From assembly GCA_033764315.1 (NCBI GenBank), contig JANRJA010000021.1, forward strand, positions 1 through 30,436: 30,436 nt of DNA, read 5' to 3'. Position 1 is the first letter of the stretch, and every line of letters begins with the position of its first letter. A program made the position numbers and the translations under genes. Under the pieces are notes generated by a model. That model did not search any database. It was not told where the DNA came from and worked only from the letters and a program-made list of their open reading frames with translations. Below, one piece after another: positions 371 through 19,948 of this stretch. The stretch is from Oculatellaceae cyanobacterium bins.114. Its GTDB lineage: Bacteria; Cyanobacteriota; Cyanobacteriia; Elainellales; Elainellaceae.

Positions 371-3300
371 TTAAGCAAACGCATAAGTTGCAGTGTTGGT
401 TGCAGCAAGAGAGCCAGCAATATTAGCCGCACTCAACCCAGTCACCCCTTCCAGGCTCATGAGCAAAGCACCAGAACCAAATCCTCCAGCGTTGGCAAGC
501 CGCAGTTGAGTGCTAGCTCCACTGACGACGACATCAACCTGCTCGATTTCAGTGATGGCTAATCGATCAAAACCCAGGTTAAACTGTCGAACCACGTCAC
601 TCCCGTCGCCACGCGCATAGAGCACGGTGTCGCGATCGCCATCCACACCCAGAGCCAAGACATCGTTCTCTGCCCCACCCACCAGCACATCGGCACCTAA
701 ACTTCCAGTGAGTGCATCTGCTCCATTGCCACCTCGCAAAATATCATTGCCAGCACTACCGTCTAAGGTGTCGTTGCCATCGCCCCCCTCAAGCAAATCA
801 TCTCCGGCTCCGCCATCGAGCACATCATTGTCTTTACCGCCATCAAGATAGTCGTTGCCTGACTCACCAGCCAATGTATCGTTTTCAGTGCCCCCTTTCA
901 AAAAATCATCACCCTCTCCTCCATTCAATCGGTCAATTCCGGCATCTCCATCAAGCACATCATTTTCGGTACCCCCGTTGAGGCGATCGCTCCCGGTGCC
1001 CCCGTTGAGATAGTCTTTTCCAGCGTCTCCTGCTAGCACATCATCCCCTGACTCGCCCCAGAGATAGTCATCTCCGTCTTGTCCTGACATGGAGTCATTT
1101 TGCTCGCCGCCATACAGAGAGTCATTTCCGACATCACCCCGCATGATATCTTGACCAAGTCCTCCAATCAGCGTGTCATTGCCTGTTTCGCCATTAATTC
1201 TGTCGTCACCTGCATCGCCACTCACATAATCGCTGCCGGGTCCTGCCGTGATCGTGTCGTTGCCTGCTTCACCCCAGAGCGAGTCGTTGCCCAACCCACC
1301 CATCAAGGTGTCATTTCCAGAACCCCCCATCAAAATATCTTGACCTGCAAAACCAATGACTCGATCAATTCCTGATTTGCCCAACATCACATTAGCGGCA
1401 TTGGTTCCCTTGAGCAGATTATTACGCCAGTTGCCTGAGATGGTTCTAACTCGCTGAGGCGCAAAGACAGAATCGGCTCCAGTTATCCGAGTTTGCCCAC
1501 GAGCAGACCCATAGGTGGCATTTCCAGTGATGGTGTTATTGTTGTCTCCGAGCGATCGCTCACGAATGCTATAGCGAGCACGATTGACGAGAGAACTGCG
1601 AACGAAATTGTTTTGCAGCGTGTTGTAGGTGGAATAAGTCAGGTTGTCACTGTAAAGCTCAACTTCACTATACGCTTCATTACGTGACTGTGAATTATCA
1701 AATATCCAGTTGTTTGCAATCGTGTTACCCGATGAGCTAAGAACCGCAACCCCATAGCGACCATTGCGTTGAATAACATTACCTTCAATATCATTGCCGC
1801 CTTCTTCAAATGAATAAATACCATTCGTTGAATTCAACGCAATTTGGTTGCTTTGAATGAATAAGTTGCGACTTCCTAACTGAATAGTGACTCCATTACC
1901 TCCGTTATCAATACTGACATTGTTGCTGACACGTGTGTTTTCAGAGTCTGTCACCAGGTTAATTCCGTGGCGATCATTATTGAATGTCAAATTGTTTTCA
2001 ACAACTGAATCAATCACTTTGTCGAGCGTAATTCCATCTAGTCCGCTATTCTCAACGATGTTATTGCGAATTGTAAGATTTGTAGTAGGTGTCCCATTGG
2101 CTGAGTTTTCGTGAGGATCAAAACCATAGGATGATGTGTTACGAATATAGAGATTTTCAAATGAGCTACTGTCATAAACTCCATAAACACCATACTTATT
2201 GCTTTTAACAGACTGGCGTTCACGGTTGCCATCGATCTGTAAATCGGCGATATGAGCGTTATAGATTTCAACGTTAGAACTCAGTAGACCCGGTCCTTGA
2301 GAACGAATGATGCCTGCATCACTCAGTGTGGCTTGATCTGTAAGACGAATGATGGTACGCCAACCAGATCCGCGTAAGGTAACGTTGCTTCTCAAGCGAA
2401 TGTTATCTGAGGTCGTAAACACTCCTGGTAATAAGACAACCGTTCCACTCCCTGCTGCATTAACTTCAGCGATCGCCCGATTAATGATTTCCTGATCATT
2501 GGTTCCAGTTGCCCGATAGGTTGCTCCTGCGGCTGTGACGGCGTCGGTGTCACTGGCAGCAATCACAATAGTCAGACTGGTTCCGGCGGGTGGGATGGAC
2601 GTGATGCGTGACGTGCTTGAAACATAGGTATTGACCTGGACAGGTTGATTGAGAGCATTGCCACTGGCATCATAACGACGCTCATAGGTGCGGAAACTGG
2701 TATGGGTTGGGTCAGCCGAATGCCAGACGATCGCATAGCCACCCGATGCCAAGCCTGTAATAGCCGCTCGACCGCGATCGCTGCTAGGAAAGGTATTGAC
2801 TTGAAGATCTTGATTAACAGGAGCACCGTTGACATCAAATTGTCGGGCAAAGACAGTGTAATCATCTGTAAAATTGGGCCGCGATCGCCATGTAATCACA
2901 AATCCACCCGTTGCTAATGCCGCAATTTGAGGCGTATTTTGTTCGCCTACGGTTCCAGCATTGACGACAAATTCGTTACCAATGGCTGTGCCATCGGCAC
3001 TAAAACGACGAGCGACAATGCCGTAGTTATCTCCATCCTGTCCGTAAGAGGCCCAAGTGGCGACAAATCCTCCATCCTTGAGAGCCGCGATCGCCGGACG
3101 ATTTTGAGAACCACTTGTGTAGGAGTTGATGCGAAATTCATTGCCAACCGCTGCACCACTAGCGTTATAGGTCTGAGCATAAACGCCATATTCGCTGCCA
3201 TCTTGAGCATTGGAGTGCCAACTAATCAGAAAATCACCATTTTGCAGAGCGGTCACGGCAGGTTTTGCCTGGTTGCCATCGGTAAAGGTGTTGACAGGAA

Positions 3301-3811
3301 ACGCTCTGCTCACAGGAGTGCCATCGGCAGCAAACACACGGGCAAAGACACTCAGTGATTGTTCATCGTCTTCTTGTTGACGTGAATCCCAAGTGATTAC
3401 AAAGTTGCCATTGCTAAGGGTGGCGATCGCCGCATTTTGTTGAAAGTTAGCTTGAGCTGTGTTGACTAAAAACTCCCCACTTAAAGCATTGCCTGCGGCA
3501 TCATAGCGACGGGCAAAAATGTCGTATTCAGTGCCTCCAAAGTTGCGAGATTGCCACGTCACAACAAAACTACCATCTGGATAAGTTGCGACAGCCGGAG
3601 TATCCTGGTTATCTTTTGTCGTGACATTAATTAAAAATTCCGTACCAATCGGATTGCCAGAGCCATCATAACGTTGAGCATAGATGCCAGTATCCATGCC
3701 ATCTTGATATTCTGACTGCCAAACAGCAATAAATCCCCCATTGGGCAAGGCCGCCACCGCAGGATGAGGCTGTTTGTATTGAGGCCGCGTGGTAATGTCA
3801 AAACCTGTCAT
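371..3811 (-). CDS. Secreted AlgE-type mannuronan C-5 epimerase/lyase-like protein: seven propeller-like repeats, right-handed beta-helix A-module, RTX Ca-binding repeats
   Basis: Seven ~55-aa repeats (PAVAALxxGGFVxxW..ARRYDxxG..EFxVN). Central module has LQIDGNR, YGFDPHE, GLDGITLD and NNDRHGIN, as in Azotobacter AlgE A-modules. Many GGxGxDxLx nonapeptides and no N-terminal signal peptide, consistent with type I secretion. Confidence 0.85.
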   Translation of the reverse strand: MTGFDITTRPQYKQPHPAVAALPNGGFIAVWQSEYQDGMDTGIYAQRYDGSGNPIGTEFLINVTTKDNQDTPAVATYPDGSFVVTWQSRNFGGTEYDIFARRYDAAGNALSGEFLVNTAQANFQQNAAIATLSNGNFVITWDSRQQEDDEQSLSVFARVFAADGTPVSRAFPVNTFTDGNQAKPAVTALQNGDFLISWHSNAQDGSEYGVYAQTYNASGAAVGNEFRINSYTSGSQNRPAIAALKDGGFVATWASYGQDGDNYGIVARRFSADGTAIGNEFVVNAGTVGEQNTPQIAALATGGFVITWRSRPNFTDDYTVFARQFDVNGAPVNQDLQVNTFPSSDRGRAAITGLASGGYAIVWHSADPTHTSFRTYERRYDASGNALNQPVQVNTYVSSTSRITSIPPAGTSLTIVIAASDTDAVTAAGATYRATGTNDQEIINRAIAEVNAAGSGTVVLLPGVFTTSDNIRLRSNVTLRGSGWRTIIRLTDQATLSDAGIIRSQGPGLLSSNVEIYNAHIADLQIDGNRERQSVKSNKYGVYGVYDSSSFENLYIRNTSSYGFDPHENSANGTPTTNLTIRNNIVENSGLDGITLDKVIDSVVENNLTFNNDRHGINLVTDSENTRVSNNVSIDNGGNGVTIQLGSRNLFIQSNQIALNSTNGIYSFEEGGNDIEGNVIQRNGRYGVAVLSSSGNTIANNWIFDNSQSRNEAYSEVELYSDNLTYSTYNTLQNNFVRSSLVNRARYSIRERSLGDNNNTITGNATYGSARGQTRITGADSVFAPQRVRTISGNWRNNLLKGTNAANVMLGKSGIDRVIGFAGQDILMGGSGNDTLMGGLGNDSLWGEAGNDTITAGPGSDYVSGDAGDDRINGETGNDTLIGGLGQDIMRGDVGNDSLYGGEQNDSMSGQDGDDYLWGESGDDVLAGDAGKDYLNGGTGSDRLNGGTENDVLDGDAGIDRLNGGEGDDFLKGGTENDTLAGESGNDYLDGGKDNDVLDGGAGDDLLEGGDGNDTLDGSAGNDILRGGNGADALTGSLGADVLVGGAENDVLALGVDGDRDTVLYARGDGSDVVRQFNLGFDRLAITEIEQVDVVVSGASTQLRLANAGGFGSGALLMSLEGVTGLSAANIAGSLAATNTATYAFA

Positions 3812-3877
3812 ATCGGATACTCCAGAGATGAGAAATACGATTTGTAATTGACTGGGAACAGGAATAAGGCGTCAGGA

Positions 3878-6058
3878 TTATGGGCGAGTTGTATTGCTCG
3901 AAATGGTGCTCAGTGTCTCTGTTGTCGAGAGATTGCCTCTCAACTGAGTATTGGTCGCGTCGATCAATACAACATCTTTGGCATTGGAATACTGATCGAG
4001 TGACACATATTCCACGACAACTTGGTTTGTATTTTGCAACACTAGACTTCGACCAGCACTGCGTTCTAGTCGCAAGTTGCGTAGTGATGATTGAGTCACA
4101 TGATTGAGAAAAATGCTGTCTGGAATGGAAGCACCTGACTCAAATTGAGGTCGCAGCGAGAATCCTTGTAAATGCACTTGTTCTAAGGGCAACGCTGTTT
4201 TTGGATCAGGGGCGATCGCGACAATCGCATGGGCTTCGGCTTGTGTTTTGGCATCAAACACCACATTCAAAATAGTGCGCTCGGCTCCCTGTCCGACAAT
4301 CATGGTCTGACTCCGCCGAATCGTGACAGGGTGAGAAAACAATAATTCCCCAATCGGTAAATTGATTTTCACGGTGCCTTGTTCCTTTGATAGCCCATTC
4401 ACTAATGCTTGCAGCGGAGCAGCATCATCTTTGTCATCGCCAGCAATGACCCCGTAATCTCTAGCATTAACTGTTTGAATGATGGGAGCTTCATAGTGAC
4501 TGTTTCGCCAAATGGCAACCATATCTTTAACGGGACTAAGCACCCCCAAGACCCAAAACAGCAACACTCCAAAGCAAAAGATTTGGGTAAAGAGCAAAAA
4601 CTTTGAAACACCTTGAGCAATTTGGACGGCGCGAGAATTGCCATCGGCTGAAAGTTTGCGATCGCCCCGATTAAACCAACGTTGTTGTGCCAGGTTCATC
4701 AGTGTCCAAATTTTGATCAACGCAGATGACCACTGCGAAAGCAACAGTAACGGTAAATGCACAGGCTTGAGAATCGATTCTCGATTCCAAAAGATGAGGG
4801 TCAATGTCAGCGATCGACTGAACAACAGCCAACACACAAGAACCCCCACCACTAACCATTTGCCGGTGAAAAGAGCGACTAATAGCAAGAAAGGTGAGAC
4901 TAGACAAGTCCACATGCTGAGGCGTTGATCAAGCAAACATAACCAGACAAACAATCCAGTTCGTCGGGGTCCCAATGCCAAAGCTCGATTGCCATTTCGC
5001 AGCATATTGCCAAACCAGCGACGCATATTTTGATACATGCGATTAAACAGCGAACCTGAGACTGTCTCAATGGAATAAACCACCACATCTGGAATGTACA
5101 GCAGTTCATAATTTCCTCGACGCAGCAACCAATACCAGGTCGTTTTGTCATCTCCAGAAAGAAATTTAAACTGTCCCCACAGCCAGTCGTTCAACATGTC
5201 ATTCTCTAACTGATCCGCAAAGGTTGGGTGCAGAGCCGCTTCACTGCGATAAAGCGAAAATCGTCCCGTTAAACACAACACTTTCTTAGACAGTGAGATT
5301 GAACACATTTGGTAGTGTCGTTGCGAAAACCGCAAATGAAACCACTCAGAGAAGATATAAGACCCCGACACAATAGGAACTTCATCCGTTGTGAGTGCTC
5401 CTAATTTAGGAAACATGACAAAGAATGGAAGACACCGTTGCAGCGTACCGGGGGTGATGACTGAGTCTCCGTCCATCAACCCGACAATTGTGTTTTTAGG
5501 TAAGTCAAGACGGGCAAGTTCTCTCAACCCCACGGCCAGTGCTTTGCGTTTGCCTTGTCCTGGATCAGCAACATGATAAACCTGCACAGAAGACAAGGTT
5601 GGATCTGCCAATTGCAGTGCTCGAATAATATCTGCATCTTCTTCGGGGCCGCTGCTGACGGTTACTAAAATCAGGGGTTGAGAAAACGCTTTTGCTTCTT
5701 CAGCGATCGCCCGAAACACCCGTTTGGTAATCCACGGTTTCTCTTTATAAGTTGGCACTAATAAACAGATAGGGGGCAGATCCTCTAGCGGAATTGCATT
5801 TGCTTGCCGACGCCAACGAGCAAAGACAAACTTTTGATAGATCCCCGATCGCAGCAGATGCAACCCAAACCAGAGCCAACGCCAAATACCAATGATTCCT
5901 AAACCGATTAAACTCGACCAACCCAAAGCTGCTAGTTTTGCTGGGTTATGTAAAGAGTAGAGACCAATCAAACCAAAAACTGCGATCGCCAACACAGCAA
6001 TCTGATTAAGATTTTGGATGATTTTTTGCCAAAGCGTTGAGACAGCCGCTTGAATCAT
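3878..6058 (-). CDS. alg8: Alg8-like GT2 mannuronan polymerase with C-terminal pectate-lyase-3-like beta-helix domain
   Basis: N-terminal TM helices, then PTYKE, DGD, LTGRFSLYR, LSGDDK and NMRRW GT2/Alg8 motifs, further TMs, then a VNARDYGVIAGDDKDDAAPLQAL beta-helix cap. ATG at 6058 preferred over the ORF-track start at 6115. Confidence 0.8.
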   Translation of the reverse strand: MIQAAVSTLWQKIIQNLNQIAVLAIAVFGLIGLYSLHNPAKLAALGWSSLIGLGIIGIWRWLWFGLHLLRSGIYQKFVFARWRRQANAIPLEDLPPICLLVPTYKEKPWITKRVFRAIAEEAKAFSQPLILVTVSSGPEEDADIIRALQLADPTLSSVQVYHVADPGQGKRKALAVGLRELARLDLPKNTIVGLMDGDSVITPGTLQRCLPFFVMFPKLGALTTDEVPIVSGSYIFSEWFHLRFSQRHYQMCSISLSKKVLCLTGRFSLYRSEAALHPTFADQLENDMLNDWLWGQFKFLSGDDKTTWYWLLRRGNYELLYIPDVVVYSIETVSGSLFNRMYQNMRRWFGNMLRNGNRALALGPRRTGLFVWLCLLDQRLSMWTCLVSPFLLLVALFTGKWLVVGVLVCWLLFSRSLTLTLIFWNRESILKPVHLPLLLLSQWSSALIKIWTLMNLAQQRWFNRGDRKLSADGNSRAVQIAQGVSKFLLFTQIFCFGVLLFWVLGVLSPVKDMVAIWRNSHYEAPIIQTVNARDYGVIAGDDKDDAAPLQALVNGLSKEQGTVKINLPIGELLFSHPVTIRRSQTMIVGQGAERTILNVVFDAKTQAEAHAIVAIAPDPKTALPLEQVHLQGFSLRPQFESGASIPDSIFLNHVTQSSLRNLRLERSAGRSLVLQNTNQVVVEYVSLDQYSNAKDVVLIDATNTQLRGNLSTTETLSTISSNTTRP

Positions 6059-6204
6059 AACAGACCACACAAGAAGAGAAAAATGAAGAGAGAAGAGGAA
6101 AGCAAAGAGAAACAATAAAGGATCAAGAATGAAGGATAAAAGTAGATCTGATTGTTACTTTTAGCCGTTAACTGCTAACCTTCATCCTTGCCTTAAACCA
6201 TCCT

Positions 6205-6639
6205 CTAATGGGTTACAGAAGCGCGAGCATAATCATCTTGTAGGCGAACAATGTCGTCTTCTCCCAGATACTCTCCGTTTTGCACTTCAATCAATACGAG
6301 TGGCAAAATTCCAGGATTCTCTAACCGATGATTGGTACAAGAAGGAACATAGGTCGATTGGTTTGAAGAGAGTAAGGTGACAGAGTCTCCACAATATACT
6401 TTTGCTGTTCCTGAAACGACTATCCAATGCTCACTACGGTGGTGATGCATTTGTAAACTAAGGCGTTGTCCGGGCTTGACTTCAATACGTTTAATCTTGT
6501 AACCCCGTCCTTCTTCTAAGACAGTAAATGATCCCCAGGGGCGGATCTCCGTCGCTGCAATTCCTTCTAACACAGGGGATAAAGCAGGAGTAGATACGGG
6601 GACAACAGCTACCTTAGAGACGGTTTGAACGTGAGACAT
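6205..6639 (-). CDS. Mannose-6-phosphate isomerase type II C-terminal cupin (AlgA/ManC PMI domain only)
   Basis: RPWGSF, LSLQMHHHRSEHWIVVSG, HRLENPG, IEVQNGEYLGEDDIVR. GGAGG RBS upstream. Confidence 0.9.
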   Translation of the reverse strand: MSHVQTVSKVAVVPVSTPALSPVLEGIAATEIRPWGSFTVLEEGRGYKIKRIEVKPGQRLSLQMHHHRSEHWIVVSGTAKVYCGDSVTLLSSNQSTYVPSCTNHRLENPGILPLVLIEVQNGEYLGEDDIVRLQDDYARASVTH

Positions 6640-6982
6640 CTGGCTTCCTCCACAACAGGAATCAATAATGATGAGATGAAATAGTAGTGAAACGGTCGGG
6701 TCAATTTTGAGGTTGGGTGCAACACCATCCTGGACAAGAGACGTTGTTGCACACCGGATTGTGGAATGCGCTAGACTCTAGGTCTGGAATCTAGAGTTCT
6801 AACTGGACATTAGGCTCGGATTCTAAGCGGGATACTTCAGGCTTCGATCGCTGCACTCTGGACTATATAGCGGCGTTTTGGGGTCTGAAGTTTTCTTTTG
6901 AGCAGAGAGAGCGATGCAACAGAGTTGTCCTGATGGAGTAGTCGCTGTCTGGGTTTGGGATAAATCATTGACTCATTCTCCC

Positions 6983-8296
6983 TTAAGCCACTGGGGCAGG
7001 TGTAGGCATCTCCAACTTGCGAATTGCTTGGGTTTCCCAAGTCATCAGGTCTAAAACAGGCTTTTCAGTGGCTTCCAGTGCAGCGGTAAATTCAGGACGA
7101 TGTTGAGTCAAAACGACAGCATCTGTTTGTTGCAGCGTCTGATCTAAGTCAGCGCAAAAGACTTGGCGAATTTGGGGCAACTGGCGTTCTAGATATTCCC
7201 GGTTGCTGCCCAACATGGTGTCAAGGTCAATGTCAGCGTCATGCACCACAATTTTGATGCCGTCTTGCCAGAGTTGATTAATCAGGTTGATCACTGGGCT
7301 TTCGCGCAGGTCATCGGTACCTGCTTTAAAGCTCAGACCTAAGATCGCCACACTGCGAACCCCCAGGTCATGTACTTTTAACCGAGCCGTGTCGATGTGC
7401 AGTTGATTGCTGGGCAAAATGGATTCCAGAATAGGGAGTTTTTCACCCAGACGGTAGGAGTTAAAGACCAGAGAACGTAAGTCTTTGGGCAAACAGGAAC
7501 CACCAAAGGCAAAGCCTGGTTTGAGATATTTGGGAGAAATGTTGAGCTTGGTGTCAGCACATAACAACTGCATGATGGTGTGACTATCGACTCCAATCGA
7601 GTCGCAGAGACGACCAATCTCATTGGCAAAACCAACTTTGAGTGCATGGAAAGCATTGTTTACAACTTTCAGGACTTCTGCATCCTCTAGTGCAATGCGA
7701 TAAATGGGAGCCTCAATTCCGTTGTAGAGTGCAGCGACGGCATCACCAGAACGGCTGTCAAGTTCGCCAATCGCAGTCAGAGGGGGTTGATAAAAATCCT
7801 TAACCGCTGTCGTTTCTCGCAAAAACTCTGGGTTCATTGCCAAGCCAAAATCAGTGCCCACTTGCTTGCCAGAGTGCTCTTCTAAAATAGGCAATACTTG
7901 ATTGCGAGTAATGCCAGAGAAGACAGTGCTACGCATGACGACTACATGATAGCGATCGCTCTGCTTCATGCCTCGACCGATTTCACGCGCCACACTGTAA
8001 ATATAGTTGAGCACAGGGCTGCCATCGGGGGCACTGGGGGTGCCAACACAAATCAAGGACATATCTGCCCAAGAGACATAATCTGTGCCATTGGTCACTG
8101 CTTTAAGATTGCCGTTGTCTAACCCTTGACGAATCAAATCATCCAAGTCTGGTTCTTTGATTGGGCTGAATCCCTGGTTAAACTTTTCGACTTTTTCAGG
8201 ATTGACTTCAACTCCAACTACATCATGACCCCGCTCAGCCAAACAGGCTGAGACAACGGTTCCAACATAGCCTAAGCCCCATACTAATACGCGCAT
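6983..8296 (-). CDS. algD: GDP-mannose 6-dehydrogenase (UDP-glucose/GDP-mannose dehydrogenase family)
   Basis: GLGYVG Rossmann motif, ICVGTPS, RSTV, NPEFLRE, DTKLNISPKYLKPGFAFGGSCLPKD (AlgD-type catalytic Cys segment), LGLSFKAGTDDLRESP. AAGGAG RBS. Confidence 0.88.
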   Translation of the reverse strand: MRVLVWGLGYVGTVVSACLAERGHDVVGVEVNPEKVEKFNQGFSPIKEPDLDDLIRQGLDNGNLKAVTNGTDYVSWADMSLICVGTPSAPDGSPVLNYIYSVAREIGRGMKQSDRYHVVVMRSTVFSGITRNQVLPILEEHSGKQVGTDFGLAMNPEFLRETTAVKDFYQPPLTAIGELDSRSGDAVAALYNGIEAPIYRIALEDAEVLKVVNNAFHALKVGFANEIGRLCDSIGVDSHTIMQLLCADTKLNISPKYLKPGFAFGGSCLPKDLRSLVFNSYRLGEKLPILESILPSNQLHIDTARLKVHDLGVRSVAILGLSFKAGTDDLRESPVINLINQLWQDGIKIVVHDADIDLDTMLGSNREYLERQLPQIRQVFCADLDQTLQQTDAVVLTQHRPEFTAALEATEKPVLDLMTWETQAIRKLEMPTPAPVA

Positions 8297-8486
8297 CGAT
8301 TTACTCCTTGATGATGTAACAGATTCAGGTCAGATCGTCCCTCAACAGAACTCGATAACCGTTCTGTGAGTAAAGGACAACCGTTTAATGCAGGTGCCTC
8401 ACGCAAAAGTAGCTACGTCATTGGCGACCCTCCTTATTGAAGTGAAGTGGAAAAACGGTGACCTCAACAGGCGAGATCTCAACAGA

Positions 8487-9770
8487 TCAAAAGTTGAGAA
8501 ATGACTGCTTACTAAAGGTAAGTTGTGCTCCTTGCCCAACTCCACAAAACTGCTGTGCACGCTCGTAGTTAGAGGGTGGCGGAATTCGCACCGTCACTCG
8601 TGTAAGAGCTTGTGCTAACAGATCAGGGGGAATCACAGGCACCAAAGCTTGGACTTGAGTACGGCGATTTTGCTCTTCGTTAAGATTGACCCCGCTAATC
8701 GGCTGCATCAAATCAACTTCCCCGCTGATTGCCTCTGGATATCCAGCTAACTCGACCGTAACGGGTTTTTGCACGTCGATTTGGCTTGCTTCTTTGGCAC
8801 TGACAATGACCTCAACCCACAAATCTGAACAGTCTAACAGGGTCAGAATAGGTTCTGAGCGATTGACCTGCTCGTTGCTTTCTTGCTCAGTGTGATAGAC
8901 CACACCCGTCATCGGAGCCGTCACCTCTAAATCTTGGCGATCGCTATAGAGTGAGCGAGCTTGTTTGAGGCGTTGCTCAGCACTTAACACCTCTGTTTTC
9001 AGAGTTGCCATTTGAGCTGAATATATCTGAATTTGCTCTTTTAATTGAGCTGTGTCTTGAGTGAAGGTGTTATTTAATGAGGGATATTGACTCATAATCG
9101 TGCGCGATCGCGATGCCCCTACCTCTGTTTTTAAGGCTTGCACCGCTTCTTGGGCACGTCGCACTTCTGCCTCTGCCGATTGCCAAGTGGCACGCAATTC
9201 ATCTACCCGTTGGGCTGAAACGGCTCCCTCATTTAGCAATTGTTGATAACGTTCATAGGTTGTTCGAGCAGTCGTTGCCTCAGCGATCGCCCCATCTAAC
9301 ACGGCTTGCTGTTGCGACATGTCACTAGAGGTTAACGTTGTTTCAACAGCCCAAACCGACTCATGTCGATTTGCCAGGGAATTGAGTTGATCTTCTAAAA
9401 ATGTTTTTACTTCTGATGCAGCCTGGAGTTGATTTTTCTTGGCTTCGAGATCACTTTCTAATTGCAACAACGATTGCTCAGTGGTGTGATCAATATTGAC
9501 TCTAGCCAATACCTGTCCCGATTCAACTTGCACACCTGGGCGAGCGTAGAAATCACCGATATTGCCGTCTATGGGCGATCGCAGACGTACAATTCGACCA
9601 TTCACGACTCCCCCATCAAGAACGAGGTGAGTCAGACGATAACTAATCGAGCTAGCCCCAATCAGAACAGCAGTCACCCCCAAGCTAAGGAAGGCTGAGC
9701 CAATTACCAAACGTTGCCAGGGAATACGAATCGGTAGAGTTGTTAGCTCATTCAATTTTGGATTTTGCAT
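8487..9770 (-). CDS. HlyD/membrane-fusion family protein, Alg44-like but without PilZ domain
   Basis: One N-terminal TM, lipoyl half-motifs (LRSPIDG..V.SGQVLA; VTAPMTGVV), long coiled coil, C-terminal beta-barrel. ATG at 9770 preferred over 9851. Confidence 0.8.
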   Translation of the reverse strand: MQNPKLNELTTLPIRIPWQRLVIGSAFLSLGVTAVLIGASSISYRLTHLVLDGGVVNGRIVRLRSPIDGNIGDFYARPGVQVESGQVLARVNIDHTTEQSLLQLESDLEAKKNQLQAASEVKTFLEDQLNSLANRHESVWAVETTLTSSDMSQQQAVLDGAIAEATTARTTYERYQQLLNEGAVSAQRVDELRATWQSAEAEVRRAQEAVQALKTEVGASRSRTIMSQYPSLNNTFTQDTAQLKEQIQIYSAQMATLKTEVLSAEQRLKQARSLYSDRQDLEVTAPMTGVVYHTEQESNEQVNRSEPILTLLDCSDLWVEVIVSAKEASQIDVQKPVTVELAGYPEAISGEVDLMQPISGVNLNEEQNRRTQVQALVPVIPPDLLAQALTRVTVRIPPPSNYERAQQFCGVGQGAQLTFSKQSFLNF

Positions 9771-10900
9771 ACCAGTGCTCAAGAACGATGGACACAGATG
9801 AACCACAGATGGTTGTGATATTTGCCAACAAAATTGCCAAACAAACAACACGTCTAACCATGCAATGAGGCAAATATTGCATCAATATTTTTTGATGTCC
9901 AGGAAAACAACCTCTGCCGAGAAAATGTTCTTAATATGCTCAAAACATTTTTTACTGATTTGAACATATCCCCATATCTGGCATTTAGCTGATACTTAAA
10001 AAGTTAATTGACCAGCATAGAAAAAAATATAAAGTTTTTGCGAGGAAGGAATTTTTTGTATGAAGTTAATATGAAGTGATAAAATAAAAAAATAATTGTA
10101 AGACAATAAAAAACCGCAAACTTCTTGATTAACAAGGGTTTACGGTAAAAACTATTTTCAATAAAAAATATTGTTTTCTCTTTTAATTTTTTATATTTAA
10201 TTAGGAAAAATCCTATTTTTTCCTAATTTAGAATATAAATAAAAATTTAAATAAGCTGCCAAAAAATCTTATTTATATTCCATAAGTAACTGTGTAATAA
10301 AGATATCTAAGCTCATCTTGATGGGCGTAGTTTTCTCTAACTACTTAAAGTGACTGAAATCTTAATAATAAAAATTTTGATTTGGTTGTTTCCGAGGCTC
10401 TTGTGATTGCTGTAAAGAGTAATCCTCAATCGCCTTGGAGAATGATGAAAATGTTGAGGTCTACCTCTTATAACTGTTGTAACTGTGAAACAGGTGAGGA
10501 CAGATTCATTAGACCCAGTGCTGATTCATATTAAGAGTGAATAGTGAACCTTACTTGCGTCAAAGCTGTCGTATCAACTATCTCAAATTGGCTTGGATAT
10601 ACCTAGATTTAAATCTAGTGCTAAAGAAATACGTAATTGAAAATACCTAGTCAATAGTACTGATGAGGATCGTCATTCTTCGTCTGCCTCAAGGTATAAC
10701 TCTAAAATCGGAGCGCAGACCTAATCCAATTTTTTAGTCAAAAGAATTTTTCTAAAGTAATTTTTTTTAATCTCTAAAAAATTTATAGAAGTCCAAAAGT
10801 GCCTTAACCCTTTGATTTGCAAGACTTTTAAAATATTTCTATTTATCTCCAGACTCAAATCTTTAAATAAAAGATGCGTTTTAATTGAACCAGAAAACTT

Positions 10901-10944
10901 AAAAAACTCACTCCACAGAGTGATTTATTTCTGTAGAATGAGTT
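10901..10944 (-). terminator. Probable intrinsic terminator of the CDGSH-DoxX-DODA-GST operon
   Basis: 15-bp stem (10905-10919 / 10930-10944) whose two mismatches are G-U pairs on the minus-strand RNA, followed by a U run. Confidence 0.55.
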
Positions 10945-11088
10945 CTTTAGGTGTTTAGCCACATCAACTTTTGGGAGTATCAAAAACTTAAAGCTGTATA
11001 TTGCTATACTCTTTGCCAGAGCTGTGCTGAAGCACCTGGCACTCTTTATTTTTTGATTGGCCAGTAATACGATTAATGAATTTATGAT

Positions 11089-12093
11089 TCAGACGAGAAT
11101 AGGGTGAGTTGTGGCTGGAGACGCTGGAAAGTGCAGGTTGCGATCGTGAGGCGCATCAAAGGCGATCGCTGGACCCATTGGAATAATACGATTTGGGTTT
11201 AATTCTGCGACCCCTGCATAATACAACTGCTTGACGTGTGTTGCGTCACACATCTCCTTTACACCGGGCTGCTGATACAAGTCACGAAAATAGTTCCACA
11301 AATTAGGGTAGTCTACTAAGCGTCGCAAATTGCACTTAAACAGCCCATGATATGCCAAATCAAACCGAAATAAGGTGGTGAAGATGCACCAATCTGCTAG
11401 GGTAACTTGATCACCACAGAGATAGCGTTGTTGACTTAACACAGTCTCCCAATGATCTAGTGCTTGAAATAACTCTGTCACCGCTTCTTCATAAGCTGCT
11501 TGAGACTTAGCAAATCCAGACCGATATACTCCGTTATTAATGGGTTGATAAATGGCATCGATCGTCTGGTCGATTTGCTGTTGTAAATGTTTAGGATAGT
11601 AATCAACACTGGCATGAGTCGCATCCTCATTAAACTCGGCGTTAAACATGGTAATGATTTGCCGAGACTCATTGTTAACGATCGTGTTGGTGTGCTTATC
11701 CCACAAGACTGGAACGGTGACTCGTCCTGTATACGTTGGGTTAGCCTTGACATAAATTTGCCAGAGAAAGTCAGCGTTGTTGACGTCATCTCGAACACAA
11801 CCGGGGTTGTCAGAAAAGGCCCACCCTTGTTCTGAAATGATTGGATCAACAATCGATAGCCCAACGACAGGTTCTAAACCTTTGAGTTTCCACAATAGGG
11901 CAGTGCGGTGTGCCCAGGGGCAACCCAATGAAATGTAGAGGTGATAACGTCCTGCTTCGGCTTTAAAGCCACTTGAACCGTCGGCTGTTACCCAATTGCG
12001 GAACAAGGTGGGCATACGCTGAAATTGCCCTTTTTCATTATGTTCTGTCCAAGCGGTAGTCCATTGACCGTTAACAAGTTGACCCAGTGCCAT
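11089..12093 (-). CDS. yqjG: Glutathionyl-hydroquinone reductase (GST Xi/omega-like, YqjG/ECM4 family)
   Basis: GRYHLYISLGCPWAHRT, TVPVLWDK, IVNNES, INNGVYRSGFA. Confidence 0.93.
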   Translation of the reverse strand: MALGQLVNGQWTTAWTEHNEKGQFQRMPTLFRNWVTADGSSGFKAEAGRYHLYISLGCPWAHRTALLWKLKGLEPVVGLSIVDPIISEQGWAFSDNPGCVRDDVNNADFLWQIYVKANPTYTGRVTVPVLWDKHTNTIVNNESRQIITMFNAEFNEDATHASVDYYPKHLQQQIDQTIDAIYQPINNGVYRSGFAKSQAAYEEAVTELFQALDHWETVLSQQRYLCGDQVTLADWCIFTTLFRFDLAYHGLFKCNLRRLVDYPNLWNYFRDLYQQPGVKEMCDATHVKQLYYAGVAELNPNRIIPMGPAIAFDAPHDRNLHFPASPATTHPILV

Positions 12094-12103
12094 GTGTTTC
12101 CTT

Positions 12104-12209
12104 TAGGTGTTAATTGAGGGGAATAGGTGTTAATTGAGGGGGAGAGAGCAGAGAAAGGATAAAGCAGAAAGGATAAAGGATAAGGGATAAAGGATAAGGG
12201 ATAAAGGAT
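12104..12209. repeat. 18-bp direct repeat plus heptamer STRR array (AAAGGAT-type x8)
   Basis: TAGGTGTTAATTGAGGGG at 12104 and 12124. AAAGGAT/AAGGGAT/AAAGCAG units from 12154 to 12209. Confidence 0.85.
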
Positions 12210-12267
12210 AAAGAGCAAGCTTGTGATCCTATCATTCCACTCTCTCTGTCTTTACTGATTGCGGGTA

Positions 12268-13047
12268 CTACGCAAAGGCATAAGCTGCCATGCTCAAGAT
12301 TCCATAGGTAAAACTGGAGTGAAGCCGTGTGCTTTGTGGGTTGTCACCCCCTGCACCGAGTGCCACAAACAAGGGAAGTAAGTGCTCATCAGTGGGATGA
12401 TTTTGAGTGGCGTAGGGGGCTTGTTGGCGATAGTTGACTAATGCCTCTGTGTCATGGCGGGCGATCGCCTCTGCCAACCAGTTATCGAATGCTGTAACCC
12501 AATCGGGAGGAGGGTCATGTAGGTCATAAGCCCCAAACATGCGTAGGTTGTGTGTAGCAGCACCACTTGCCAAAATTAACACTCCTTCTTCGCGTAACTG
12601 GGTTAAAGCCTGTCCTAACAGCAGATGATGATGAGTTCCTAACCGGGGCTGAATCGAGAGTTGTGTAACGGGGATTGTTGCCTCTGGATACATCAACATC
12701 AACGGTTCCCAAGCACCATGATCAAGGCCGCGATCGCCATCTACCACAACCTTAAATGCGGGTGCTAATGCCTTACTCACCTGTTCAGCCAGTGCTGGTG
12801 CTCCGGGAGCACCGTATTTCATCTGGTATAAGACTGGAGAAAAACCGCCAAAATCGTGAATTGTAGAGACGTTTTGTGCACTGCTGATGGTAGGGGCTTG
12901 AGTGAGCCAATGAGCAGATATGACAAGAATGGCTTTTGGGGTTCCTAGTTGTGTTCCCAATTGTTTGAGAAAATCAACCGCAGGAACGGCTTGTAACAGT
13001 AGCTCAGGGGAGCCATGAGAAATGAAAATGGCAGGAAAAATAGTCAT
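12268..13047 (-). CDS. ygiD: DODA-type class III extradiol dioxygenase (YgiD/LigB family)
   Basis: FISHGSP, ISAHW, IHDFGGF, GLDHGAW, SGAATHNL, HPTDEHLLPL. Confidence 0.9.
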   Translation of the reverse strand: MTIFPAIFISHGSPELLLQAVPAVDFLKQLGTQLGTPKAILVISAHWLTQAPTISSAQNVSTIHDFGGFSPVLYQMKYGAPGAPALAEQVSKALAPAFKVVVDGDRGLDHGAWEPLMLMYPEATIPVTQLSIQPRLGTHHHLLLGQALTQLREEGVLILASGAATHNLRMFGAYDLHDPPPDWVTAFDNWLAEAIARHDTEALVNYRQQAPYATQNHPTDEHLLPLFVALGAGGDNPQSTRLHSSFTYGILSMAAYAFA

Positions 13048-13266
13048 AGGTAGGAGAACCTAATTAAACTCAATTGAGAATCCGGGTTGAGCAGAGTCGA
13101 AACCCGCTGCCAGCGAGATTTAGAGCGTTAAGTGGCTTGTCCTGAGCGGGTTGAATGGGAGTCGAAACGCATCTTACCGTTCATGACACCCACCTACTTG
13201 GAAACACACAACTATGAGAGAAAAAGGAGAGCGGCGATCGCTACGCTTGATCAAAAACTAACTCAA

Positions 13267-13728
13267 TTAACGGGTTCGGTCAGGCAAGAGTGCGATCGTA
13301 CCTGATCCATATTGAACAATCATGAGCAATCCACCTATGATTGCTAGATTTTTGAGAAACATGATTTGCTGGAGTTGATCACTCAAATTTGTGTGAAAAA
13401 TGAGGGTAGCAAGTGCGGTAAATCCAATCAAAGCGATCGCTCCCCAACGAGCTTGATATCCCAATAAAACCGACAGCCCTGCTCCAATTTCAAGAGCGAT
13501 CGCGGCTATTAAAAATAACCCTGTTAGGGGCATTCCTGCTGCTGCCATATAGTCTTGAGTTGCTGCCGGATGCAACACCTTATTGATCCCCGACACCAAA
13601 AAGAGAACCGATAACAAAATACGAGCAATCAGTGGAATGTAATTACGAGTGGCGTAAAGTCCGCGATCGCTTGGTTCAGGTCTGGACAAGATGTCAGCTG
13701 CTTCAGAATTAAGAATGCGAATTTTCAT
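13267..13728 (-). CDS. DoxX family membrane protein
   Basis: ARILLSVLFLVSGINK, LEIGAGL, FH, FLKNLAIIGGLL; four TMs. ATG at 13728 preferred; start uncertain. Confidence 0.9.
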   Translation of the reverse strand: MKIRILNSEAADILSRPEPSDRGLYATRNYIPLIARILLSVLFLVSGINKVLHPAATQDYMAAAGMPLTGLFLIAAIALEIGAGLSVLLGYQARWGAIALIGFTALATLIFHTNLSDQLQQIMFLKNLAIIGGLLMIVQYGSGTIALLPDRTR

Positions 13729-13761
13729 AGAAGTTTCCCCCACTGGTTTACTGATGATTTG

Positions 13762-13953
13762 CTATTGGTGAGTGTTTGTGTTTGCACTGCCACTGATCTC
13801 GACCGTAGCGGCAGTCGGTAACTCTAACGCTAGAGGCTGAAATTCGCTTCCTTTGTGAGATCCGTTGCAGTAAGGAGCATTGCTAGAGTGACCACAAGTA
13901 CAGAGCCAATGTGTGCCAGCATCCAATCGAACTGTGAACGTTGGTTGAGCCAT
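13762..13953 (-). CDS. CDGSH iron-sulfur domain protein (single domain)
   Basis: WLCTCGHSSNAPYCNGSH matches the CDGSH 3Cys-1His [2Fe-2S] motif. Confidence 0.88.
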   Translation of the reverse strand: MAQPTFTVRLDAGTHWLCTCGHSSNAPYCNGSHKGSEFQPLALELPTAATVEISGSANTNTHQ

Positions 13954-14154
13954 AGGATTAAGTGAGGAGAATCAGTTTGATCAAGAAATGTACTAACACG
14001 TACTTTCTGTTTATAGATATAGCATAAATTTGTTTGGAGTCAAACAGTTTAGTTAGGAATATTTGACATTTGATAGATATGACATTTGATAGACATTTGC
14101 CCCCGACTCGGCAGACCCGCCGCAATCGAGTTGTCTAAATGGACTGCAAAAGTT

Positions 14155-14200
14155 TTGACAGCTCAAAATTATCTGCGCTAGAATAGTACAGTCATACTAT
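14155..14200 (+). promoter_or_regulatory. Sigma70-type promoter with overlapping putative cyanobacterial LexA box
   Basis: TTGACA (14155-14160), 18 bp spacer, TAGAAT (14179-14184). AGTAC-AGTC-ATACT (14185-14198) lies inside the palindrome ATAGTA-N6-TACTAT. Confidence 0.55.
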
Positions 14201-14357
14201 CTACTCTATGCTGCTTTAGCTGTGTTCAACCCTGGAGCAACAGCTATGATGGTGTACTTTTGGCTCCCTTCCATTGACCTTAACAGTCGGAGGAGTGGCG
14301 GTTGAAACTACCAGAACAAAATCGGCCTTCGTCGGTTCAAAACCCTCAGTCCGCGTC

Positions 14358-14385
14358 GGACGTTCGGCGAAGCTCGGTCGAGCCG
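14358..14385 (+). repeat. 28-bp small dispersed repeat, copy A
   Basis: GGACGTTCGGCGAAGCTCGGTCGAGCCG; 25/28 identical to the reverse complement of 27115-27142. Confidence 0.75.
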
Positions 14386-14495
14386 CAGACTTCGTTCCAA
14401 TAGCCGCGAGTTCATTCGCCCGGTTCAGTCCCCTAACTACTAGATGCGCCCTTAGAACACTAAATCTACATTTGTTTTTGATATTTCCTTAGTCT

Positions 14496-14933
14496 ATGAA
14501 ACTCTCTGAGATTCTTCCTGAATTGACCGCTAAATTTGAGCCACATGAGCACAAAAAACGCCAAGTGCCGGGTGGGGCAGATTGGTATTTTGTTCCCTGG
14601 CAAACCGTTCGAGCACGGCTCAACCGCATCTGCCCAGAAGATTGGACCAATATTTACTCAGATCTCACCTTTACTGAAGGATATTGCATTATTGTATGCA
14701 CCTTGACCATTTGTAGTGTGAGTCATCAAGGCATTGGCTCAACCCCTATTGAAATGCTGAGTCAGGAAGGCAAAAACGTTGCTTATGGCGATCCGATTGA
14801 GCGAGCAACAGCGGATGCATTTAAGAATGCAGCGGAACAATTTGGCATTGCTGCCTATTTAGATGCTCAAAGTAATCCGATGAAAAAGAAGGCATTTGTT
14901 GAATATGTCAGTGGTCGCAGTAGAGCGGCTTAG
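14496..14933 (+). CDS. Rad52/Rad22-family ssDNA-annealing protein
   Basis: YFVPWQTVRARLNRICP..W, beta hairpin with QGIG, YGDPIERATADAFKNAAEQFGIAAYL: Rad52-like annealing-domain signature. Confidence 0.75.
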   Translation: MKLSEILPELTAKFEPHEHKKRQVPGGADWYFVPWQTVRARLNRICPEDWTNIYSDLTFTEGYCIIVCTLTICSVSHQGIGSTPIEMLSQEGKNVAYGDPIERATADAFKNAAEQFGIAAYLDAQSNPMKKKAFVEYVSGRSRAA

Positions 14934-14986
14934 ACGAAATCCTACTGAAGTACCAGGTTAGGGTTCAGTGATTTTGGCAGTGACCG

Positions 14987-15769
14987 TTAGGCAGTAAGCA
15001 CTTCATCTTTTAGATCACCAATAAACATATGTCCCGGTGCATGGGTAATGGCAAATTCGGGCTTTGCTTGGTCAATCGCGATTTGAGTTGTAACGCCACA
15101 AGCCCAAAAAACAGGGACTTCATCATCACCCAGCGTAACCGCGTCTCCATAGTCTGGACGAGACAAATCATCAATCCCAATTTTGTCTGGGTCGCTAATA
15201 TGAATTGGAGCTCCATGAGCTTTGTGATAACGCGCTGTTACTTCTACAGCTCGAACAACCTGGCGCACCGGAAGAGGACGCATAGAAACCACTAAAGAGC
15301 TAGAAAAAGTGCGGCTAGAAAAGCAGTCAATGGTTGTCTTATACATGGGTACATTCTTCTTCTCCTCAATATGGCGCACAGGTAAACCTGCGTTCAACAA
15401 AGCGTTCTCGAATGAAAAAGAACAACCAATCAGAAACGTAACGAGATCGTCTCGCCAAAGCGGTCGAATATCAGTTGTTTCCTCAACCAGTTCACCCTGA
15501 CGAAAAACGTTGTAGCGGGGTAAATCTGTTCTAATATCAGCACCGGGAGCCAACCATTTAGGCTCAAACTCTCCTGCATCTATCACATCAAGAACTGGGC
15601 AGGGTTTAGGATTGCGCTGGCAAAACAGCAAAAATTCAAATGCTAATGGGTACGGCAATATTACTAAATTAGCTTGAACGTATCCTGGTGCAAGCCCTGA
15701 TGTAGGAGTTGTTAACTGATTCGAGCGACAACGCTGACGAATCTCGGCAGGAAGCATAGAAACTGACAT
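14987..15769 (-). CDS. DUF1445/UPF0317 putative hydro-lyase (D-glutamate cyclase-like, YcsI family)
   Basis: PTSGLAPGYVQANL, FCQRNPKPCP, DIRTDLPRY, GCSFSFE, VPVFWACGVT, ITHAPGHM. ATG at 15769. Confidence 0.9.
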   Translation of the reverse strand: MSVSMLPAEIRQRCRSNQLTTPTSGLAPGYVQANLVILPYPLAFEFLLFCQRNPKPCPVLDVIDAGEFEPKWLAPGADIRTDLPRYNVFRQGELVEETTDIRPLWRDDLVTFLIGCSFSFENALLNAGLPVRHIEEKKNVPMYKTTIDCFSSRTFSSSLVVSMRPLPVRQVVRAVEVTARYHKAHGAPIHISDPDKIGIDDLSRPDYGDAVTLGDDEVPVFWACGVTTQIAIDQAKPEFAITHAPGHMFIGDLKDEVLTA

Positions 15770-15864
15770 GATTGATTCTCCCAGTACAGCCACACGTAAT
15801 ACCGCTACAAGTTCTTAATCTGTTAATTCAAGCTGGTCTTGAACCATCTTATTTATGGCACTTG

Positions 15865-18800: not shown

Positions 18801-19611
18801 CAATCAATCCCCCGTTGGATTGCATAAACATCAGTTTAGGAGCTAAGGGCGTTGTAGCGGTGGCTTCCCTTCCTGCTAATGCAGTGGCTACTTGCTCCAC
18901 ATACCGTCGCAGAATGGGTGATAGATAGGCATCTACAACGGTTGTGTCTCCCCGACTGACAAGTTTCATCAACGGGCTTACCACATGGGAAACGGAAATT
19001 TGGGTGAAACCGATTTCACGCGCGATCGCCGCCATGTGTTGTTCATGCTGAGGGTAGCGATAGCCATGTAAAAACACGATCGCGCAAGCTCGAATACCAA
19101 CATCATAAGCCGATTGAAGAGATTGCATCAGGGTTTCATTGATCTGAATCGGAATTAATTGTTCTCCCTGAGCTGTATAGCGTTCTTCAACCTCAATCAC
19201 TTGCTCATAGAGCATTTCCGGTAATATGATGTGGCGTGCAAAAATGTCAGGACGATTTTGATACCCAATTCGCAGGGCATCGCGAAATCCTTTTGTAATG
19301 AGTAATAGGGTGCGATCGCCCTTTCGCTCTAACAGCGCGTTGGTTGCTACCGTTGTACCCATCTTTACGGCTGCAATTTGTTCTGTTGGAATGGGGGCAT
19401 CCACTGCAATGCCTAAAATCTCTCGAATCCCCTGAATGGCCGCATCCTGGTAGCGTTCTGGATTTTCAGACAGCAGTTTATGCACGACAATCTCACCATC
19501 AGGACGTGCTGCCACAATATCAGTAAAGGTGCCACCGCGATCGATCCAGAATTGCCAGCCGTATTGATTAGAACTAGCGATCGATAAGTTCTTTTCCTGA
19601 TCAAAACTCAT
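15865..19611 (-). CDS. oplAH: 5-oxoprolinase (ATP-hydrolysing), fused hydantoinase A/B type
   Basis: [80 protein letters not shown] at 19611 preferred over 19665. Confidence 0.93.
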
Positions 19612-19948
19612 GGGTATTTCGCTCCATACAGATATACCAATATACAGTTGAGTGATTTTCATCACATGGAAGATTTAATAACAATCAAGTTGTGATCAAT
19701 TTGTTTAAGCAAAACTGCAAGTCAGTTTTAAGAGTCATCAGGGAATGTCCAAGAAAACATGAAAATAATGACTGTAATGATAAACAAAGGAGAAGAGGAG
19801 TTGAGTTAAAGTTCTTCTTCCGCCTTGGGAAAAAGATTGAGGGTGAGGGCTACAAATGTGAGATACTCTCTGGCAACCTACTTTATATGTTATAGAGTAA
19901 AACACCGCATATCAAAATATGGTGTGAGATATAGTTTGGAGCCTACTA

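Follow-up and report, generated by a model that had tools for sequence, protein, structure and literature searches.

The window analyzed here, the whole 30,436-nucleotide contig C178 (JANRJA010000021.1) of Oculatellaceae cyanobacterium bins.114, carries a cluster of five co-oriented genes, all on the minus strand, whose product is probably alginate, which would be unacetylated, exported through TolC and epimerized outside the cell. The genes encode an adaptor (membrane-fusion protein), an AlgD-type GDP-mannose 6-dehydrogenase, a stand-alone phosphomannose-isomerase (PMI) cupin, an Alg8-family processive GT2 synthase and an AlgE-type mannuronan C5-epimerase-like protein. The cluster lies outside the canonical twelve-gene alginate operon family, yet it is most likely an alginate pathway. 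Homologies, motifs, folds, gene order and co-occurrence were computed directly. To our knowledge, alginate production is established only for brown seaweeds and two non-photosynthetic bacterial genera. If our reading is correct, there are filamentous cyanobacteria that use five or six genes to turn CO2 into alginate. This would matter for the chemistry of the sheath, for the binding of calcium and for tolerance to desiccation, and would offer biotechnology a compact acetylation-free cassette together with new epimerases.

A conserved cluster of five genes

The five open reading frames (ORFs) match the Pfam families HlyD_3, UDPG_MGDP_dh, MannoseP_isomer, Glyco_tranf_2_3 and Beta_helix plus RTX, respectively. 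G001, a 100% complete genome of the same genus, has the same five genes in unchanged order at 80-90% identity, and the cluster is therefore not a chance assembly. ORFs, Pfam matches and this synteny agree with a previous sequence-only reading of the window, which had named five co-oriented genes of these kinds at these positions. The same reading had allowed for an extension past position 1; sensor-kinase genes, however, come after the epimerase gene in the complete G001, so that the cluster is complete with these five genes and does not continue beyond that position. G011 has four of the cluster genes on its contig (64-84% identity), and the closest named homologues of the cluster proteins are cyanobacterial. 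A recent foreign island was considered and ruled out, with 17 HIP1 sites against 15.2 expected and a GC content of 0.473 against 0.476 for the genome.

The dehydrogenase belongs to the AlgD clade

The dehydrogenase (6983..8296, minus strand; 437 residues) found its best PDB match in 1mfz, the GDP-mannose dehydrogenase (GMD) of P. aeruginosa, with 398 bits and an ungapped alignment of positions 1-405, against 237 bits for the best UDP-glucose dehydrogenase (UGD) in the PDB. Identity to the AlgD of a canonical Pseudomonas-type operon is 45%; for the second family member of the genome, a housekeeping enzyme on contig C32, the figure is 32%. A phylogeny of AlgD versus UGD enzymes had been set beforehand as a test that could refute the alginate reading. 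When 62 sequences were analyzed with FastTree, the enzyme fell in the AlgD/GMD clade: the enzymes from the cyanobacterial clusters came together (support 1.0) within the GMD-type proteins, and the housekeeping UGD-type enzymes fall apart from them. Both H217 and C268 are present, which we take to be functional residues, C268 being the catalytic cysteine. That a GMD-clade dehydrogenase is encoded in the cluster, and a separate housekeeping enzyme elsewhere in the genome, supports alginate as the product.

The PMI cupin (6205..6639, minus strand; 144 residues) matches PF01050 with an E-value of 5e-50 and is 51-57% identical to the C-terminus of three AlgA proteins, whose pyrophosphorylase half had no match anywhere in the genome. 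Of the PMI (AlgA) named by the earlier reading, the PMI cupin is thus present, but it corresponds to the cupin half of AlgA only. A second copy, 77% identical, lies on contig C115.

An Alg8-family synthase with a beta-helix domain

The synthase (3878..6058, minus strand) likely starts at ATG 6058, although the frame is open to TTG 6115. It is 36% identical over 424 residues (E 1e-77) to the Pseudomonas mannuronan synthase P0361, and used as a query it retrieved Pseudomonas-type Alg8. The motifs D215-G-D217, G321-D-D-K324 and R366-W367 (RRW) are kept, as is E350, the equivalent of E322, a residue described as essential in P. aeruginosa Alg8. The equivalents of Alg8 H323 and E326, which are described as affecting the response to cyclic di-GMP (c-di-GMP) in P. 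aeruginosa, are not conserved. No GT2 sequence in the PDB matched at E<=1; a structural model (predicted local distance difference test, pLDDT, 87.7) has as its nearest solved fold hyaluronan synthase, a processive, channel-forming GT2. Membership of the Alg8 family was the other test set beforehand, and both the sequence and the trees, which were built from Alg8-family rows only and have no BcsA outgroup, place the synthase there. Alphaproteobacterial homologues sit in operons resembling alg, in which algF, MBOAT, Sel1 or alginate lyase genes are annotated, and the automatic annotation of JGI names many homologues mannuronan synthase or Alg8; the operons sampled around locus L150 were all non-canonical.

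The C-terminus of the synthase forms a short beta-helix domain (3911..4483, minus strand), for which PF12708 scored below the cut-off (E 1e-4) and the Atlas neighbors are beta-helix families. One transmembrane helix is predicted after the conserved W-x-N-R loop, and the domain comes after the last such helix; this would place the beta-helix in the periplasm, where it is presumably non-catalytic. At the same position, the homologue P0122 has a PL14 lyase domain fused directly to the synthase. Longer C-terminal extensions are found in P0129, P0131 and other non-cyanobacterial Alg8-family proteins of 870-960 residues, beta-helix-like in the two examined. Elsewhere, L097:658-9161 has two tandem adaptor-synthase pairs ahead of one PL14 gene, and L202, a contig from a viral collection, has an Alg8-family gene (36%), the sole viral match.

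An AlgE-type module in a propeller-RTX protein

The epimerase-like protein (371..3811, minus strand; 1146 residues) comprises a seven-repeat beta-propeller (residues 1-400; 2612..3811, minus strand), an A-module (1487..2572, minus strand) and RTX calcium-binding repeats with a C-terminal module (374..1459, minus strand; PF00353, E 2e-60); propeller, A-module and RTX tract are all seen in a model with a pLDDT of 85.9. The A-module matched that of AlgE6 with an E-value of 1e-34 (123 bits) and that of AlgE4 with 6e-32 (114 bits), against 102 bits for the bifunctional enzyme 8ja4; identity to AlgE4 and AlgE6 is about 30%. Its top fold match is the AlgE4 A-module (TM-score 0.83 on the target, root-mean-square deviation 1.8-2.2 A). 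All four catalytic residues are kept, Y562, D565, H567 and D597 corresponding to Y149, D152, H154 and D178 of AlgE. Residue roles and the determinants that separate epimerases from lyases are those described in PMC8824271, the epimerase set being K117, F122, G148 and L172. K536 corresponds to K117 and L591 to L172, S561 at position 148 is neither Gly nor Arg, and position 122 aligns ambiguously, so that three of the four positions are not of the lyase type. The A-module is predicted to act as an epimerase rather than a lyase. Formation of blocks of guluronate (G-blocks) is not readable from the sequence, and calcium gelling of the product is putative.

The propeller repeats are about 55 residues apart, and the fold resembles CylK and lectin propellers at 12-14% identity; an Atlas search with the propeller matched only unnamed clusters. 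Possibly, the propeller serves in surface or sugar binding. The RTX protein is a presumed substrate for type I secretion, and two HlyB-type transporters of the genome score over the cut-off.

An adaptor without a PilZ domain

The adaptor (8487..9770, minus strand) has 427 residues from ATG 9770, a start that agrees with that of the G001 orthologue, although the frame is open to GTG 9851. It has one N-terminal transmembrane helix, a long alpha-hairpin, and lipoyl and beta-barrel domains; the Pfam family is HlyD_3 and the best PDB match is EmrA (E 4e-8). Compared as a profile with the transmembrane and periplasmic part of Alg44, it matched with a probability of 98.3% (E 1.6e-14), and when an Alg44 profile was run over the 12 adaptor-like proteins of the genome, the adaptor of the cluster came out on top (62.7, against at most 48.1). 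There was no BLAST-level match to Pseudomonas Alg44, no Pfam match to PilZ in the adaptor, and only about 20 residues precede the transmembrane helix from ATG 9770. The earlier label of an HlyD/Alg44-like protein therefore holds for the membrane and periplasmic part but not for PilZ; lacking that domain the adaptor is no Alg44, though its function may be similar. When 32 cyanobacterial adaptors were combined into a profile, this found the Alg8-adjacent partners of numerous bacteria outside the phylum, the matches often beginning some 150 residues in. Pseudomonas Alg44 did not reach E<0.01 with it, and one unrelated ABC adaptor encoded in the genome scores higher than those partners. The hairpin spans an interval of about 195 residues; in the two Alg44 proteins, of seven compared, in which the pattern matched properly, it is about 37.

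Some relatives have a further domain on the adaptor at the place that PilZ occupies in Alg44: a degenerate-looking EAL domain in G120, G190 and five of the 22 named loci described below, and a receiver domain in G304. The usual EAL-domain motifs DDFGTG and EGVE are absent from the six adaptor EAL domains that were aligned, and ExLxR is kept, which suggests that these domains are receptors for c-di-GMP. EAL- or receiver-fused adaptors are found at L067:6780-8900, L065:11145-13994, L091, L092, L093, L108 and L110, and at L064:127-1953.

Canonical parts that are missing or encoded elsewhere

AlgK, the porin, AlgX, AlgJ, AlgF and AlgL had no tblastn match at E<=0.01 in the genome, which is 90.7% complete. 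The porin family PF13372 (Alginate_exp) was found neither here nor in the complete G001, and ALGX in none of five genomes (positive control, three of three). The PL5 lyase family PF05426 was found in none of four cyanobacterial genomes; the intended control, G496, had none either, and a Bacteroides control was positive. An AlgG query gave a weak match to the A-module only. Acetylation of the polymer is unlikely, although an MBOAT gene, 33% identical to AlgI, lies unlinked on contig C113. TolC-family genes are present at three unlinked places, and an intact PL14 lyase is encoded on contig C97, nearest to the alginate lyase 5gmt (E 2e-33, against 3e-8 for vAL-1). Thus, the absences listed by the sequence-only reading extend genome-wide for AlgK, the porin, AlgX, AlgJ, AlgF and the PL5 lyase, but a lyase of another family is present on a different contig. 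A second, partial PL14 match with an internal stop lies at L089 (G000:C141:22781-23173).

Distribution of the cluster and of an AlgD-less sister type

Among 401 genomes sampled evenly across the phylum, this one included, the synthase was found in seven and the A-module in two, both synthase-positive; PL14 occurred in nine, namely all seven synthase-positive genomes and two of the 394 others. A chosen panel comprised 13 synthase-positive and 50 negative genomes. Weak glycosyltransferase matches in G023 and G036 were not counted as family members; G036 is among the negatives, and G023 (76% complete) was excluded. An AlgD orthologue, defined by at least 53% identity, was found in 7/13 positive and 0/50 negative genomes, the A-module in 5/13, all with the AlgD orthologue, and in 0/50, and PL14 in 13/13 and 1/50. 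One of the seven AlgD-positive genomes, G190, has an unlinked AlgD without the catalytic Cys motif; this homologue (L066:8899-10398) is possibly a relic, and the G190 synthase groups with the AlgD-less ones.

The best 80 of 600 synthase matches gave 79 loci, 22 of them cyanobacterial and named. An adaptor gene lies co-oriented upstream of the synthase in all 22, directly so in 19 and with AlgD in between in three (plus PMI in one), and PL14 is within the examined flank in 18. AlgD occurs together with the A-module in three, those of Floridaenema aerugineum, Phormidium R1S1 and a Microcystaceae metagenome-assembled genome. Among cultured strains, F. aerugineum BLCC-F46 (L104) and Oscillatoria sp. 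FACHB-1407 (P0003 and P0290) have database entries with both the synthase and the A-module protein, and Leptothoe spongobia TAU-MAC 1115 (L101) is AlgD-less. The genomes of the remaining 19 loci gave no AlgD orthologue; two of them had no dehydrogenase match at all and are probably incomplete. The survey of synteny that the earlier reading had called for shows that the five-gene order recurs in G001 and that most cyanobacterial loci have neither AlgD nor an epimerase. Since most cyanobacterial homologues lack AlgD, an Alg8-type GT2 alone is no proof of alginate. The AlgD-less adaptor-synthase unit, usually beside PL14, is seen within L091-L112 (19/22) and at L014, L016, L020, L021, L023, L067 and L068.

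Synthase trees of 93 sequences (FastTree) and 38 sequences (IQ-TREE, fast mode) both united the cyanobacterial synthases, the AlgD-positive lineages diverging first and the AlgD-less ones lying among them. This branching order suggests that AlgD may have been lost in the sister group. A DP motif precedes GKR in 11/11 synthases of the AlgD-positive type (nine with AlgD seen), where 27/27 others have Q; the shared motif would also fit monophyly of the AlgD-positive synthases. The residue was rejected as a marker of the donor, as 25 of 31 non-cyanobacterial loci also have Q, a good number of them together with a GMD. The product of the sister type may be a different polyuronate, for instance glucuronan made from UDP-glucuronate, or else mannuronan by way of a promiscuous housekeeping enzyme. 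For a brown alga, a figure legend states that all tested GMD/UGD members show GMD activity (PMC5778160).

The largest cyanobacterial version, L062 (G132; 8316-19330), comprises PL14, PMI, adaptor, AlgD, synthase, an A-module protein and a PL7 lyase; its A-module protein has a PPC domain and a signal-like N-terminus in place of RTX. At L199:2575-10104 (G009), in a complete genome without the synthase, PL14 lies one gene from a 1954-residue propeller-RTX protein.

Alginate against other products

Several observations weigh against alginate. In P. aeruginosa, Alg44 needs its PilZ domain (PMC3815931, PMC4436075), and the cluster has nothing that replaces it. The TolC genes are not linked to the cluster, and two of five other genomes tested gave weak matches to Alginate_exp. 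The calcium-loop region of the A-module, taking the loop to lie where we presume it does in AlgE4, differs from that enzyme. GMD-clade enzymes also sit in unrelated polysaccharide clusters (G021, and a second copy in G034), and G304 has AlgD and the synthase but no A-module match. An AlgE-type site may also belong to a lyase, and AlgY has no activity (PMC4444821). AlgD-less cyanobacterial homologues (about 55-64% in the glycosyltransferase domain) are nearer to the synthase than Pseudomonas Alg8 is (36%), so that the donor of the synthase is read from the neighboring genes, which point to the use of GDP-mannuronate for beta-1,4-mannuronan. Moreover, the sister type makes do with adaptor and synthase, usually with PL14, and relatives share genes by kinship, so the counts given above are not independent.

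The synthase could make a different or mixed polyuronate (glucuronan, or a copolymer of mannuronate and glucuronate) that AlgD and the A-module merely modify, an explanation that we regard as improbable. The 19 loci whose genomes lack an AlgD orthologue would fit it, and five AlgD-less genomes that were tested have a single UDPG/GMD-family gene each, all five of which join the housekeeping clade in the tree. In other phyla (L164, L197, L124), Alg8-family synthases are encoded beside UGD-clade enzymes and PL14, a family that includes glucuronan lyases (PMC11890756), and hyaluronan synthase, the nearest solved fold, is a UDP-sugar enzyme. The window's cluster, however, has an intact GMD-clade gene and an A-module with a mannuronan-epimerase site; A-modules were seen only together with AlgD, and AlgD-positive synthases carry their own DP motif, though Q is no donor marker.

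Less probable still is a plain mannuronan or low-G polymer that forms no calcium gel, with the RTX protein acting mainly as a lyase or binder that frees or remodels the sheath. Against it, position 148 has no Arg, and the Lys at 117 and the Leu at 172 fit an epimerase; both AlgE6 and AlgE4 outscore the bifunctional 8ja4, and the genome has a separate PL14 lyase. For it, AlgE7-type enzymes cleave with the same four residues, AlgE4/6 identity is low, P0292, the homologue in G011, has at 172 the Lys found in lyases, and one AlgD-positive genome lacks the A-module. That the cluster is silent or a relic making no polymer, as its patchy family (7/401), the apparent loss of AlgD in the sister group and the defective G190 gene might suggest, is very improbable given five intact frames, their conservation in G001 and G011, and catalytic motifs kept across dozens of homologues.

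The alginate reading, by comparison, draws support from the clade of the dehydrogenase, the Alg8 family of the synthase, the catalytic residues of the A-module and the co-occurrence of A-module and PL14 with the synthase, and one AlgD-positive locus also carries a PL7 alginate lyase. The reduced machine that the sequence-only reading had proposed agrees with the genome-wide lack of canonical parts. We can entertain, if only tentatively, a wider scenario in which adaptor, synthase and PL14 form an old polyuronate exporter acting through TolC, whose original form, retained in the window, would make unacetylated G-block alginate without control by c-di-GMP. A larger derived branch, equally doubtful, would have lost AlgD and the epimerase, taken UDP-glucuronate as donor to make glucuronan and been partly rewired to c-di-GMP through the adaptor EAL domain. 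If true, photosynthetic organisms of this kind would have a route to an alginate that gels, and a single synthase family would contain a natural pair of enzymes separated by a switch of donor.

Proposed pathway and relation to known systems

In the alginate reading, the substrate and its linkage, the way of export, the action as an epimerase, the content of G-blocks, the expression and the role in the organism are all inferred, and the steps would be as follows. The PMI cupin would supply mannose-6-phosphate to the GDP-mannose pathway of the cell, and the AlgD-type enzyme would oxidize GDP-mannose to GDP-mannuronate. The synthase would make beta-1,4-mannuronan and thread the chain into the periplasm, past the beta-helix that it carries on that side. 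The adaptor may dock on the synthase, its long hairpin reaching a shared TolC-type channel in place of AlgK and the AlgE porin. The RTX protein, leaving by a type I system, would convert mannuronate to guluronate outside the cell on the unacetylated polymer, and the PL14 lyase encoded elsewhere may clear or trim polymer in place of AlgL. The cluster is a test case for two matters, the activation of Alg8 where PilZ is lacking and the capacity of a duct made of adaptor and TolC to transport a polyanion, and the sister type raises the question of donor choice.

Pseudomonas and Azotobacter are listed in reviews as the bacterial alginate producers (PMC3815931). Their system shares with the cyanobacterial one the AlgD-clade dehydrogenase, the Alg8-family synthase, an Alg44-like inner-membrane adaptor (in its non-PilZ part) and the PMI domain. 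Their operon, however, has twelve genes (algD-alg8-alg44-algK-algE-algG-algX-algL-algIJF-algA) against five, and the cyanobacterial adaptor lacks PilZ and has a far longer hairpin, the synthase carries a beta-helix in addition, AlgA is represented by its cupin half alone and the lyase is an unlinked PL14. With AlgE1-7 of Azotobacter vinelandii and PsmE of P. syringae, the epimerase-like protein has in common the A-module fold, the catalytic residues and the RTX repeats that follow; it differs in its identity of about 30%, in the 400-residue propeller before the A-module, in its one long RTX tract, and in being the sole epimerase candidate, encoded inside the biosynthetic cluster.

Cellulose secretion in Thermosynechococcus vulcanus is described as involving BcsA, BcsZ, an HlyD-like and a TolC-like protein (Maeda et al., 2018, as cited in PMC8892547). 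As far as that account goes, the two systems share a processive synthase, an HlyD-like adaptor, a polymer-cleaving enzyme and the lack of a tetratricopeptide-repeat scaffold or porin, but the cellulose system has another GT2 family and donor, PilZ on the synthase and no epimerase. Atypical environmental alginate operons have likewise lost algKE or modification genes (bioRxiv 10.1101/769745); the parts of that preprint covered here mention no cyanobacteria, PL14 or EAL- or receiver-fused adaptors. Within the parts covered of a phylum-wide survey of cyanobacterial exopolysaccharide genes, no protein joins PilZ and HlyD in the manner of Alg44 (PMC4594306). Its supplementary domain-screen sheets include a 716-residue Lyngbya 'alginate synthesis-related protein' and a 940-residue neighbor; the locus tag of the former is absent from the main text, and the loci are not singled out there. 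The epsSMASH preprint, in the part covered, reports alginate clusters in Rhodobacter, and its supplements could list cyanobacterial cases. A Synechocystis isolate was claimed on chemical grounds, without genome data, to make alginate (PMC10629183). We found no description of the present cyanobacterial loci in a literature search that left subscription journals mostly outside.

Control region and flanking genes

As the adaptor of the window carries no sensor, control of the cluster may be transcriptional. The AT-rich non-coding stretch 5' of the first gene (9852..11088; GC content 0.29 in 10001-11000) is likely its control region. It contains no ORF of 90 residues and no Rfam match, and a promoter scan gave one promoter-like site at 9901-9873, such sites not being enriched relative to shuffled sequences. 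Beyond it, the flank (11089-13743, minus strand, and 14987-20911) has an ordinary look, with glutathione S-transferase, LigB dioxygenase and DoxX genes, hydantoinase/oxoprolinase-family and D-glutamate-cyclase-family genes, and a divergent LysR gene. Between these two parts, on the plus strand (14496-14933), lies a gene for a 145-residue protein with a Rad52/22-family match (E 2e-7).

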